Source: Eledone cirrhosa (lineage: Eukaryota). Taken from it: DNA of 64,000 nt. The notes beneath the pieces are model-generated. The model saw only the letters and a list, made by a program, of their open reading frames with translations. It was not told the origin of the DNA and did no database searches. Location: assembly GCA_964016885.1 (NCBI GenBank), contig OZ024743.1, forward strand, positions 370,698,001-370,762,000, read 5' to 3'. This document shows positions 17,169 through 63,069 of the stretch, in pieces; the first letter of the stretch is position 1; each line of letters opens with the position of its first letter. Both the position numbers and the translations under genes were made by a program.

Positions 17169-17448
17169 AATATTATAATGAAATGACAGGAGGCTGAATT
17201 TGTGTAAATCCTTGAAACGTTTATTATACTATGATCATTTCAATGACCGGGTTCCGTATGAATCCGGTGATATCATCAAATCCAGCCTCCTGTCATTTCA
17301 TTATAATATTTAACTCCGTAATAGCACCACCAACTACAAAAACAAAGACGGTTGAACTGCTTTACGTTGAGTACTCTCTATATTATTGCATTACGATTAA
17401 CCATACGGAATAGACCAGCTCTATACAGTGGTGAACCTCAAACCTGAA
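17169..17448 (+). mobile_element. Fold-back PLE-type terminus (arms 17169-17201 / 17277-17310 plus tail)
   Basis: inverted arms, (TA)n flanks; second copy on minus strand at 63824-64000. Confidence 0.65.
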
Positions 17449-17514
17449 TATATATATATATATATATATATATATATATATATATATATATATATATATA
17501 TTGTGTGTGTGTGT

Positions 17515-17885
17515 ATAAATGTAATCTGAGTTTTTCGAATATTAATAATAATATTCGATTCGTTTGCAATTATGCAAACAAGTCTCATTTTTAAAGCCAT
17601 GTCAGTAGAATGAGTCCCTCATTCTTGCTCTTGTGTTGGCATGTAAACATAACTACAGACACTAATGTTTCTGGGTATCACCCTTTATCAGTACAGCTCA
17701 CTGCTCACATACCAACTGTCAGAGCTAGTGAAAATATATGTAATTTTCTAAAATATACAGTGACTATCGGCCTGATTTGCATATTAACAGATCCACTGAT
17801 CAGCCAGATTTGCATATCAGCAGACTGGCCAGTCAGTTTCCTATATACAAGCGATATATGGCCGGCTTTGCCACATTCAAATAAA
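17515..17885 (-). mobile_element. PLE pLTR family O (octamer array plus hammerhead), copy 1
   Basis: homologous to 28490-28890 and 46218-46655; hammerhead at ~17651-17699 with G8A change. Confidence 0.75.
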
Positions 17886-17909
17886 ATGTATATATATATA
17901 TATATATAT

Positions 17910-19430
17910 GTGAAAAACATGGGAAGAAAGGGGAATACTGCGTGGTTGCACATGGGTTACATATTATAAAATTAGTCCCTCATCAGTGATTTGCCAACCA
18001 TCATTGGTATTTCATCGCAAGGAATGTTTGTTTGGATATAAGATATGAAATTAAAATTTATTATAAAAAATATACTTATGGATCTGTTTTTCTTTTTTCT
18101 TCTTTGATTCATCAAAGTAACATTATTGAAAAAATAAGATTGGTCTTAATTTAAGTTCAGCAGGTTGAGGTGGATTCTTTACAGACTTTGTTAATTGTTT
18201 TACACTTATGGATCGTCGGAAGTCCGTAAAGATTGCTGGTTTAGCATTCAAAATGTGTTAAATAATCGCGTTCCTTTTTAGTTAAGCTTTTCTGGTATTG
18301 ACAAATGAATGCGTTTAATCTGGTCATCGTTTTTTATTGCTGGCAGTTGTTTACTATTTCATAGTAGTTGGTATCTTGTAAGAGAGAGAATATAGAGTGT
18401 TTATACTGTTCAGCATCCATCATGACGACAGTGGCTCCCTTATCCGCTTCCTTAATTATAATGTCAGTATTGTTTTACAATTCATAGATAATCTTCCATT
18501 CCCTTCGTCTCGAGTCAGGTTTGGGTTTAGGCTGTGGTAGTTTAGCCACTTTTCATATATATCTGCTTTGCCGTTATTTTTTAGGAGATTCCAAAAGGCA
18601 AGTTTGTGGGCTGTGAGCTTTTGAGTCCATATATTATTTTCTCTGAGTGGATTTCTCGTAGTTTGGGTTCTAATGGTTGTTCCAGCTTTTTTAGCATTGC
18701 TGTCTCAGTGGTTTTGATTAGTTTGGTTAATGTTGGAGTAATATCCGTCTTTTGGGTATTTTCTCCTTCATGGAGTCCTTTTTGTAGATATGTATTTGGT
18801 CCACTTTGTTGGTCAAAAGTGAAAGTTTGAAGTGAAAGTTCTTTTAAGATGTCCTGGTTCAATGTGTTCCCAACCCACACAAAGGAACAAAGATTACAAC
18901 CCGGACCATCAACAAACCGAACCTCAATACGTCCGAAACCTCTATACAAGACCACACAACAACTGGGAAAATGCCATTACATATAGTAATACTCATGAAA
19001 AAACAATTCAGAAAGATCATTTTTTAGACCAAGGCTACAGGACCCACGACACCCGATGGCACAAACTGATTTTTAAAAACCAAAAATAATCAATCATTCA
19101 AATACAAACATCTCAACCCAACAAATTAAAATTCTCTCAAAAGGACTGAAATTCACACCTACACCACAAGGTAAAATCTATTCCAACATTGTTTTTCTGT
19201 TGTTTTTTTTGTTCAAGTTCTGTCAGATGAGGTCATAGCTGTTGAATAATGGTTATCACCGTAATATATATAGCAAATAATATGAATAAACGAAGCTAAT
19301 TTTAACTTGTTGACTTACACTTCTTGTTTTTACATTACTCCGGAGTAAACAGACCCACCTGCACACTTCGTTGAGTGCTCTAACCTGCATTCTGAAGTGT
19401 TGCTAAACAACCAACACATACTCAAAGTTA
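17910..19430. mobile_element. Rearranged Penelope-like element with RT fragments on both strands and 3' pLTR
   Basis: minus: NNTDIIIKEADKGATVVMMD (~18414-18473), LYGLPTIHK (~18205-18232); plus: IKILSKGLKFTPTP (~19125-19167); pLTR 19168-19430. Confidence 0.75.
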
Positions 19431-58856: not shown

Positions 58857-59293
58857 ATAGTGAAAGAGTGAAGAATAACATGGTCAACAGTACAAAAAGG
58901 GTTTAATTTACAGTATTAACAATTGTTTCATTGATTAAGTTGTCTAAAAATTGCTAATCACTTGAAGTTGTGTCACTCATGGTTAAGCATACATTGTATT
59001 TAAACTTGAGTGACACAACTTCAAGTGATTAGCAATTTTTAGACAACTTAATCAGTGAAACAATTGTTAATACTGTAAATAAACCCCTTTTTGTACTGTT
59101 GACCATGTTATTCTTCACTCTTTCACTATTATTACTCCAAGGTTAACTTGCATAGAAACTCCAGAGAACTCACAAACTCGCTACCTAAGGAAACCTCTTG
59201 TTGAGTCAAACAACGCCGTACGATAAGACTATCCATAATACGGAATATTCACAACCTCTAAGTGGAGCAGCTATAAAGATAATTTGTTATCCC
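58857..59293 (+). mobile_element. Fold-back pLTR (arms 58857-58979 / 59007-59129) with hammerhead 3' half and tail
   Basis: near-perfect arms; GAAACAATTGTTA at 59057; ACTC at 59134. Confidence 0.75.
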
Positions 59294-61307
59294 ATATATA
59301 TATATATATATATATATGTATATATACATATATATATATATACATATATATATACATATATATATATATATTCATATATATATACATATATATATATATA
59401 TATACATATATATATACATATATATATATATACATATATATATATACATATATATATATACATATATATATATACATATATATATATACATATATATATA
59501 TATACATATATATATATATATACATATATATATATATATACATATATATATATATATACATATATATATATATATACATATATATATATATATATATATA
59601 TGTATATATATATATGTATATATATATACATGTATATATATATATATATACATGTATATATATATATATATATACATGTATATATATATATACATGTATA
59701 TATATATATATATATATACATGTATATATATACATGTATATATATATATATATATATATATATATATATATATATACATATATATATATATATATATATA
59801 CATGTATATATATACATATATATATATACATATATATATATACATATATATATATATATATACATATATATATATATATATATATACATATATATATATA
59901 CATATATATATATACATATATATATATATACATATATATATATATACATATATATATATATACATATATATATATACATATATATATATACATATATATA
60001 TATACATATATATATATACATATATATATATATATATACATATATATATATACATATATATATATACATATATATATATACATATATATATATACATATA
60101 TATATATACATATATATATATATACATATATATATATATACATATATATACATATATATATATATACATATACACATATATATACACATATATATATACA
60201 CATATATATATATATATACATATATATATACACATATATATATATATACACATATATATATATATATACATATATATATATATACACATATATATATATA
60301 CACATATATATATATACACACATATATATATATATATATATATATATATATACATGTATATATATATACACATATATATATATACACATATATATATATA
60401 CACACATATATATATATATATATATATATATATATATATACATGTATATATATATATATATATATATATATACATGTATATATACACACATATATATATA
60501 TACATGTATATATACATATATATATATATACATATACATATATATACATATACTTTTATATATATATAGACATATTTATACATATACTTTTATATATATA
60601 TACACATATATATATATATATACACACACAAATATATATATGTACACACAAACAAATATATATATACATACACACACACAGACATCTATATAAACATAAA
60701 AATACACACACATATATACACACACACATATATATATACATATATATACACACACATATATATATACATACATATACACATATATATACATATACACATA
60801 TATATATATACTTACATATATATATACATAAATACAGATAAATATACATACATACATATATATATACATATGTATATATATCTACATATATATATATATC
60901 TACATATATATATATATCTACATATATATATATATCTACATATATATATATCTACATACATACACATACATATATATATTAGCACATATATATATATACA
61001 TATATATATATATATATATATATATATATATATATATATATACACATATATATACATAATATATATATGTATATATACATATGTATATATACATATATAT
61101 ATATATATATATATATATATATATATATATATATATATATATATATATATACATATATATATATATATATACATATAAAAATATATATATATATATAAAT
61201 ATATATATATATATAAATATATATATATATAGATATATATATATATAAATATATATATATATATATAGATATATATATAGATATATATATATATATATCT
61301 ATATATA
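59294..61307. repeat. Long (TA)n/(TACA)n microsatellite
   Basis: direct reading. Confidence 0.95.
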
Positions 61308-62655
61308 TGTTCTTAGCCCTCTCCTGTTCATCATAGTCCTGCAGGCAATAACGGAGGAGTTTAAGACCGGATGCCCATGGGAACTCCTGTATGCTGATGA
61401 CCTCGCACTCATAGCTGAATCTATGGTAGAACTAGAGAATAAATTCCAAACCTGGAAGCAGGGACTAGAGAGAAAGGGCCTCAAAGTCAACATGACAAAG
61501 ACTAAGGTCCTTATAAGTAGACGAGAAAACAGAACCCAGATCCCCTCAGGGAAATGGCCTTGCTCAGTATGTAGGAAAGGTGTAGGTAGGAACTCCATTC
61601 TTTGCCCCAAATGCAAACAATGGGTACACAAGAGATGTAGCGGGATCTCAGGAAGCTTAATTAAGAATGTAGGATTCACATGCAGCAGCTGTGCTGAAAC
61701 AGCAAGCAAACAGCCACAGGAAACAAGTACCACCAATCTCTGGGAGGGCCCTGTAGAAACAGTAGACAGCTTCTGCTACCTAGGTGACCGAATTAGCAAC
61801 GGAGGTGGGTGCTCAGAAAGTACAATAACTAGGGTAAGAACGGGATGGAAGAAGTTTAGGGAACTACTACCACTGCTAGCTGCAAAAGGCTTCTCCCTCA
61901 GAATGAAAGGCAGACTGTATGATGCGTGTATCCGAACAGCGATGTTGCATGGTAGTGAGACCTGGGCGCTGAAGGTGGAAGACCTACGTAGATTAGAGAG
62001 AAACGAAGCCTGCATGCTCCGATGGATGTGTAACAGTAATATACGTGAACGACAAAGCATAAATGAATTGAGAGAGAGACTGAGCATAAGAGGAATCAAA
62101 TGCTGCGTGCAGGAGAGGCGGTTACGCTGGTATGGACATGTGATGCGTATGAAGGATGACAGCTGCATAAAAAGGTGCAGAGCACTAGAAGTTGATGGAA
62201 ACCGCGGAGTGGGGAGACCCAAGATGACTTGGGATGAGGTGATAAAAGCCGACCTTACCCAACTACACCTCTCAAAGTCAATGACACACGACCGTGACTT
62301 CTGGCGTCACGCAGTAATACAGGGTACCCGACCTCCCATGGGTACATGCTGAAGCATATAAACAATATGCCCCCCCCCCCCCCACCGCAAGGTGGTCGTG
62401 GAGGTGCCACGGCAAAAAAGCACCCAGCCCACACTGTAAAGTGGACGTGTAGGCGCCACGAAAAAGCACCCAGCACTCACTGTAAATGAGGTTGGTGTTA
62501 GGAAGGGCATCCAGCTGTAGAAATCAAGCCAGATCAGTTCCTGTATGAGCAAGGCATGGTCAGCCGACCAGACACTGCCCACAACAGGACAACCCGTCTA
62601 ACCCATGCTAGCGTGGAAGAACGGACGTAAAACGGTGATGATGATGATGATGATG
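61308..62655 (+). mobile_element. RTE LINE 3' fragment, young, open reading frame with PHD insertion
   Basis: [40 protein letters not shown]; stop at 62352; (GAT)n tail. Confidence 0.93.
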
Positions 62656-62877
62656 ATATACATATATATATATATATACATATAAAAATATATATATATA
62701 TATAAATATAGATATATATATATAGATATATATATACATATATATATATACATATATATATACATATCTATATACATATATACATATCTATATACATATG
62801 TATATACATATCTATATACATATATATATACACACATATATATGTATATATATATATATGTATAGATAGATATATAT

Positions 62878-63069
62878 AACAAAGGAATTGTGGTAAGGAA
62901 CCAGATGGACCATAACGCACCAGAGTACTCAATACTTAAGGTAGTAGAGTGGGAAATAGGAAAAGTATGACCCCGACGACAGAGCTCTAGCCGTTTCAAC
63001 GGGTATTTAGTCCAGAAATAGCTGTCGAAATGGCTTAAGGTGTGCCGTCGGGGTCATACTTTTTCCTAT
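62878..63069 (-). mobile_element. Short fold-back pLTR (arms 62956-62978 / 63046-63069) with hammerhead 3' half
   Basis: minus strand GAAAC-GGC..GTC-GTC-GGGG; ACTC (62947-62950) and GAGTACT (62924-62930) tail. Confidence 0.6.

Follow-up and report, generated by a model that had tools for sequence, protein, structure and literature searches.

We analyzed a 64,000-nucleotide stretch of the Eledone cirrhosa genome (assembly GCA_964016885.1, contig OZ024743.1, forward-strand positions 370,698,001 to 370,762,000), hereafter called the window, which contains many fold-back repeats whose inverted arms are followed by a tail on one side only. The initial annotation of this DNA proposed that a shared signal, ACTC followed by a complementary GAGTRCT, marks the point where the arms stop and the tail begins. 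We partly confirm this observation, and find that it is real beyond the window. The signal belongs to a small predicted hairpin with a two-nucleotide bulge, which in the families that could be traced lies in the 5' leader of Penelope-like elements (PLEs), in most cases together with a second such hairpin. The features of the window are listed in Table 1.

Arm ends in the window

ACTC is present at every coordinate cited in the initial annotation, except that the site given as 46914 is at 46913, 1 nt away. The distance from arm end to ACTC, given there as about 2-8 nt, is borne out by values of 2-9 nt at the eight existing fold-backs: 2 nt at 17313 and 44416, 4 nt at 55714 and 59134, 5 nt at 43453 and 62950(-), 6 nt at 56530, and 8-9 nt at 48809. 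Likewise, GAGTRCT is found at all six places named (17369, 19373, 17039, 44432, 55735 and 62930(-)). The GAGAACT at 59164, on the other hand, had been taken in error for the partner of 59134: it allows zero inner pairs, and the true partner is the GAGT at 59203, with four outer and five inner pairs. No GAG was found within 85 nt downstream of 43453, 48809, 56530 and 46913. The site at 28843, which had been counted as a member, was rejected, as it has no pairing partner, lies 136 nt from its own hammerhead core and belongs to a repeat with scattered ends.

The statement that the surrounding sequences share no homology was too strong. Firstly, 17039, 19337 and 46913 belong to a single family. 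Secondly, ACTCGTGT is common to 43453 and 56530. The description of the families as unrelated was also only partly right: the families with a traced parent all fall into a single clade, Hydra, and site 43453 is part of a Neptune-type element. Finally, the palindrome at 21597 is not the sole exception, because the motif is also absent from the fold-back at 51937-52012 and from the inverted pair 19503-19713/21278-21488.

Enrichment and covariation of the hairpin

We examined 1 Mb of DNA outside the window from the same 3.0-Gb genome, consisting of 200 kb of flanks and 80 scattered pieces of 10 kb. Together with the window, this DNA contains 352 inverted pairs; in 114 of them only one side is flanked by (TA)n, and in two both sides are. 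Merging of duplicates left 92, of which 14 with low-complexity or short tails were dropped. The resulting 78 one-tailed fold-backs include 71 from outside the window, which represent 38 families, some of them not Penelope-like at all. ACTC starts at most 12 nt from the arm end in 28 of these 71 copies. Counted by the first copy of each family, it does so in 11 of 38. When the sequences were dinucleotide-shuffled 200 times, the copy count averaged 3.0 and never exceeded 7, and the family count averaged 1.6 and never exceeded 6. Control positions inside the arms gave 2 and the reverse strand gave 1. Thus, the enrichment over shuffled sequence, on which the initial annotation had staked its proposal, holds outside the window. 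In the other 43 fold-backs the arm end lacks ACTC; GCTC takes its place in a few, which brings the total for RCTC to 32 of 71. The motif is clade-limited.

The tails follow the pattern RCTC, inner stem, two unpaired bases, GAGY and, usually, RCT, with 15-69 nt between ACTC and GAGT. This fuller, bulged motif is present in 27 of the 71 outside copies (shuffle maximum 2), while bulges of 0, 1, 3 and 4 nt in its place give 2, 2, 2 and 6 copies. A scan that demanded the outer words only returned 194 hits, 66 of which have at least three inner pairs with a bulge of 2; the same pairing occurs in 8, 4, 5 and 3 hits with bulges of 0, 1, 3 and 4, respectively. Among 18 family representatives, whose partners were picked blind to inner pairing, 45 of 54 cells of the inner stem are paired, compared with 26.5 +/- 3.0 (maximum 37) in 5000 swaps of the 3' halves, and no other bulge size rises above chance. 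The outermost pair of these representatives is A-T in eight, G-C in three, T-A in one and unpaired in six, and the first base of the bulge is T in 16. Compensatory changes, the second point on which the proposal hung, are present in the outer stem (ACTC/GAGT, GCTC/GAGC, TCTC/GAGA). The conserved RNA stem suggested by the initial annotation is supported and can be given a sharper outline, because the family-specific inner stem compensates as well and the 3' bulge has a constant length of 2 nt. On the grounds of shuffle enrichment, bulge specificity and covariation, we rejected chance as the source of the motif.

It could be argued that the signal acts as DNA, either as a recognition site of the endonuclease or as a hairpin in single-stranded cDNA that resolves an intermediate. 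Recognition by the Drosophila virilis endonuclease needed tail sequence (as cited in PMC11167929), and Craig et al. attribute tails to endonuclease-mediated resolution (PMC8557442). We nevertheless regard a DNA-level signal as very unlikely. Pairing conserved across 15-69 nt is ill-suited to a duplex site; in well-paired families, the first three inner pairs include three wobbles that are G.U on the sense strand and none that are A.C (a weak indication); and copies ending at site 1, the upstream one of the two end sites described below, never copy the hairpin.

Parent elements

Six motif families (those of 62950, 55714 and 19337, and three more) lead into, or follow, a Hydra-type frame as defined in Craig et al. 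(PMC8557442). Five of the parents have the W-motif variants RVRWK, ILRWR, RLRWT, RMRWK and RIRWR, not all of which are exactly RWK, and no GxKF/Y. The change from DKG to DKT and insertion into (TA)n were also seen in motif-family parents. A C-terminal endonuclease with a CxCX5C linker and no CCHH is seen in the 785-aa frame of locus L164, and a Hydra-type endonuclease lies upstream of motif family 4 in four copies. Pfam assigned no family to three Hydra-type proteins. Judging by these motifs, and by comparison with Hydra-1_Amil by eye, the six traced families are Hydra-clade PLEs. In five of the six, a second bulged hairpin (hairpin 2) is present, four times as GCTC/GAGC and once as CCTC/GAGC with the outermost pair unmatched. 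In the traced families, hairpin 2 follows the tail end by about 3-6 nt and precedes the start codon by about 25-70 nt.

One Hydra-type family is very young (L059 9021-10000; L131-L180): intact 785-aa frames are common in it, and many of the 150 candidates scored are 100% identical over 65 aa.

A hammerhead core lies in the pseudo-long terminal repeat (pseudo-LTR) of these elements (L059 9021). A strict core precedes four of 11 window sites and is degenerate or absent at the others. A scan of Rfam returned no hammerhead among the best 150 of 308 matches, which were only sub-threshold matches of microsatellites or palindromes to microRNA models. The hairpin itself has no hammerhead core, in that no GAA precedes ACTC at the window sites. 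It has to be considered whether ACTC/GAGT is a decoy that swaps strands with stem III of the hammerhead and so switches self-cleavage, since stem III reads actc/gagt, the words of the outer stem of the tail hairpin, in five Hydra hammerheads listed in File S2 of PMC8557442. We consider this highly improbable: here stem III differs while the tail motif stays constant (for instance in the 62950 and 44416 families), and a decoy leaves the bulge, the second copy and the fixed register of the ends unexplained.

The search for parents of 17313, 44416 and 59134 yielded none among 15, 6 and 0 loci, respectively, and no consistent continuation past the tail was found for these families or that of 43453. 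A DNA search of the genome with window positions 44280-44500 gave no match and was uninformative. In the 43453 family, CGGT replaces GAGT while the inner stem is present, and two copies run on from the endonuclease of a GLKF/DKG-type family. This endonuclease, with CxxC and two histidines, is Neptune-type; no Hydra-type one was seen upstream of this family. The Neptune-linked tails (43453, 56530 and L095 at about 5480) have the form ACTCGTGT-NNN-ACAC followed by two pyrimidines, at the offset of hairpin 1 and with no GAG strand. By its sequence, the ACTCGTGT hairpin is possibly a distant homologue of hairpin 1.

Two candidate assignments were dropped. Neptune as the clade of the motif was given up, as a Neptune family has its two ends 37 nt apart and no such stem. 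It was also considered that the 19166 repeat sits within an intron of the adjacent KGLKF frame; that frame is Neptune-type, and the relatives of the repeat lead to a Hydra-type frame.

Register of the ends

On the sense strand the hammerhead comes first, followed by end site 1 and hairpin 1, then the tail, then end site 2 and hairpin 2, and finally the start codon. The tail is about 70-165 nt long and the repeat unit about 3.5 kb. Junctions of copies with (TA)n mostly fall 3-6 nt 5' of hairpin 1 or 2, at AT or TAT, and all six sites of three well-resolved families end in AT or TAT, overlapping the target. In the young family, site 1 accounts for 18 of the 31 TA-flanked ends and site 2 for the other 13 (one more end is of another kind), each 3 nt before NCTC except one at 4 nt. 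Of the 23 TA-flanked ends of the 62950 family, seven precede hairpin 1 by 5 nt and 15 precede hairpin 2 by 3 nt; 21 further ends have no TA flank. For the 55714 family, five of nine TA-flanked ends are at 4 nt and four at 6 nt, and five others have no TA flank. Both ends are visible in eight of 19 long loci, and all eight pair site 1 with site 2; site 1 is on the direct copy in six of these insertions and on the inverted copy in two. The copy at L161 exceeds one unit, and tandem arrays with a period of about 3.5 kb are present. Different PLE stumps frequently form end-to-end nests, in which each newcomer sits in the short (TA)n remaining from the one before (L021, L047, L051 and others).

The initial annotation had offered two roles for the signal, fixing either a priming point or a template-switch point. 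The former would be consistent with the constant spacing seen at the two ends of the element. The latter is not favoured, because the motif is located at the outer, (TA)n-joined ends and not at the fold-back apex.

Proposed role of the twin hairpins

The twin bulged hairpins in the 5' leader of Hydra-clade elements likely bind the reverse transcriptase and set the start of copying, a reading that we draw from their sequence and position. The endonuclease would nick both strands of a (TA)n tract, and each hairpin, bound by reverse transcriptase, would present the AU or UAU immediately 5' of it to a nicked 3' end, which would pair with it. Two cDNAs made from opposite strands would then converge and be joined head to head, giving a fold-back with a one-sided tail that holds hairpin 1. 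Since L161 is longer than one unit, the RNA used as template would be tandem or circular and contain both hairpins.

The same genomic ends are predicted if the RNA is instead cut, or its 3' end formed, immediately 5' of the stem under the direction of the hairpins, with the enzyme then copying from the ends so made, and a structure-guided nuclease would likewise yield a fixed distance from the stem. We think this unlikely for three reasons. First, a Poseidon element starts internally, and RNA added at its 3' end leaves the product unmoved (PMC11167929). Second, the pairing of one end of each kind is simpler with a single uncut RNA. Third, the ends follow the nearest AT or TAT rather than one distance. 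Alternatively, the hairpins may be protein-binding operators, for translation control or cis-preference, with nearby UAU words setting the ends by coincidence. The position of hairpin 2 relative to the start codon would suit such a role, and a weak bulged stem fits a protein-binding site. Nevertheless, this alternative seems to us quite improbable, since it leaves unexplained the register of 3-6 nt at both sites, in several families and with tails of about 70-165 nt.

Several observations weigh against a role of the hairpins in setting the copying start. In one AT-rich family the site-1 ends are scattered over 2-21 nt, and the sixth traced family has at site 2 only a plain 4-bp GCAC/GTGC stem. 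The Neptune- and Poseidon-like families of this genome have two fixed ends and no motif; thus, the motif is not required for tails generally. Folded in isolation, the stem is weak: two of six complete window sites include the outer stem in their minimum-energy fold, its pair probability is 0.37-0.42 at 62950 and at most 0.15 at 55714 and 59134, and 19337 prefers another pairing. The full motif was defined post hoc, after the data had been seen, and the families share ancestry, so that the permutation p-values are optimistic and not strict probabilities. Finally, among published Hydra consensus sequences, compared by eye, Hydra-1_Crog and Hydra-1_Amil match partly and Hydra-1_Obim not at all.

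The proposal that the hairpins position the reverse transcriptase can be extended, tentatively and with more doubt than belief, to a portable scaffold with two handles, conserved from cnidarians to echinoderms and arthropods, that would dock the halves of a reverse transcriptase dimer on one RNA and prime two cDNAs on opposite target strands. If this were true, twin priming would directly produce the Penelope fold-back with its one-sided tail, the sister clade of telomerase would contain a telomerase-like template-positioning RNA, and cargo RNA could be written into DNA from two defined starts.

The origin of the inverted copies and one-sided tails of PLEs has long been open, and a single element has been studied in vitro. 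A small, clade-conserved structure at a fixed distance from both ends names the exact nucleotides to mutate, and the young family, with its many intact 785-aa frames, is a source of enzyme. In addition, the motif is a clade marker with which stumps without any coding sequence can be annotated.

Features and other repeats of the window

Table 1. Hairpins, fold-backs and related features of the window (positions in the window; strand as read).
Feature	Position	Strand	Remarks
Bulged hairpin 1	17313..17375	+	ACTC, 5-bp inner stem, TT bulge, GAGT-ACT
Context of the 17313 hairpin	arm end 17310, tail end 17448	+	outer-stem pair probability 0.60-0.64
Hairpin 1, second copy of the 19337 family	17003..17045	+	ATTC variant, U.G wobble
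Hairpin 1	19337..19379	+	6-bp inner stem, TT bulge; relatives run on into hairpin 2, then a Hydra-type open reading frame (ORF)
Stem of the 43453 site	43453..43472	+	ACTC GTGT agg ACAC CT CGGT; inner stem, no GAGT
Fold-back	43678..44413	.	arms 43678-43949 and 44133-44413; hammerhead core 44312-44352
Hairpin 1	44416..44438	+	ACTC CAA..TTG TC GAGT GCT; pair probability 0.87-0.89; tail end ~44500
5' half of a 19337-family hairpin	46913..46945	+	3' half lost
Likely decayed hairpin 1	48809..48835	+	CAGCACT, against GAGCACT in the related L061 copy; fold-back 48598-48799
Hydra-type endonuclease fragment	52427..53383	+	CxCX5C linker; no cited site shown joined to it
Fold-back	55406..55709	.	hammerhead-like core 55607-55653
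Hairpin 1	55714..55741	+	ACTC CAGT..ACTG TA GAGT GCT; tail end 55795; relatives run on into hairpin 2, then a Hydra-type ORF
ACTCGTGT tail, partnerless	56530..56555	+	likely related to the 43453 family (likeness judged by eye)
Fold-back	58853..59129	.	inverted arms
Long hairpin 1	59134..59209	+	TT bulge, then GAGT at 59203; 5 inner pairs
Hairpin 1	62924..62950	-	ACTC TACT..AGTA TT GAGT ACT; tail end 62879; relatives run on into hairpin 2, then a Hydra-type ORF
Fold-back, commonest motif family	62956..63069	.	inverted arms
Extra copy of the 17313 hairpin	63898..63960	-	absent from the initial annotation

The window contains several other repeats. The relatives of the exceptional palindrome (21613-22120) include a 310-bp tandem unit that contains a hammerhead core (L231, L259); in the tail of the palindrome, the only stem ahead of the GAGC word is a degenerate GCT..AGC. 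An inverted pseudo-LTR pair of a Neptune-type family lies at 19465-21488, with ends 37 nt apart in the full-length relatives L277-L288, and a broken Neptune-type frame at 18080-19170. In the fold-back at 51791-52012, the short arm stops upstream of a hammerhead-like core, not at the usual end of the family. Repeats of a 360-bp family, which has a hammerhead-like core and no fixed end at 28843, are found at 17524-17855, 28486-28880 and 46233-46587. Helitron-like Rep/helicase frames interrupted by stops occupy 36538-40801, and a non-LTR element encoding endonuclease and reverse transcriptase is present at 3-11130 as two tandem copies that are 96.6% alike.

Comparison with known systems

Two-site initiation has already been published, for a Poseidon element, and so have the element class and the tail (PMC11167929; PMC8557442). 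We found no description of this hairpin in the literature searched, including the portions covered of PMC11167929, PMC8557442, PMC4209133, PMC3846280 and bioRxiv 10.64898/2026.07.22.740005; figure images, the GenBank supplement of PMC11167929, the supplements of the preprint, subscription papers and Repbase entries were outside this search. The hairpin is a real, clade-wide and apparently undescribed cis-element.

The Hydra clade has been characterized by RWK, DKT, a CxCX5C linker, the lack of CCHH, a hammerhead and a (TA)n target (Craig et al. 2021, PMC8557442). The elements described here share with it these features and inverted copies with a one-sided tail. PLE tails are generally 30-40 bp in that account, in whose consulted parts no tail hairpin is described, compared with about 70-165 nt here. 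By eye, the full motif can be recognized in three of six published Hydra consensus sequences, namely Hydra-2_Amil from a coral and Hydra-1_Ajap (twin) and Hydra-2_Ajap, the two from a sea cucumber.

The Poseidon element of Anolis, PAc, starts reverse transcription internally, at two sites that bound the tail and lie in a stem-loop; its start sites are downstream of the hammerhead, its target is AT-rich and its protein is a predicted dimer (Frangieh et al. 2024, PMC11167929). Like PAc, the elements studied here have two fixed end points bounding the tail and an AT-rich target, known in our case from genomic ends; PAc is thus a precedent for the proposed priming. S1 of PMC11167929 holds no CTC/GAG stem. 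The start of PAc is described there as lacking homology to the target; the ends here show an AT or TAT overlap with it.

Metazoan minimal hammerheads and non-LTR retrozymes also carry a hammerhead in a pseudo-LTR, and a circular template has been proposed for their longer-than-unit copies (PMC4209133; bioRxiv 10.64898/2026.07.22.740005). The hairpin described here is downstream of, and separate from, the hammerhead ribozyme, and has no ribozyme core. In telomerase RNA and in the epsilon element of hepadnaviruses, a bulged stem bound by the reverse transcriptase fixes the start of copying. Epsilon primes inside its own bulge, whereas in the elements studied here copying would start outside the stem.

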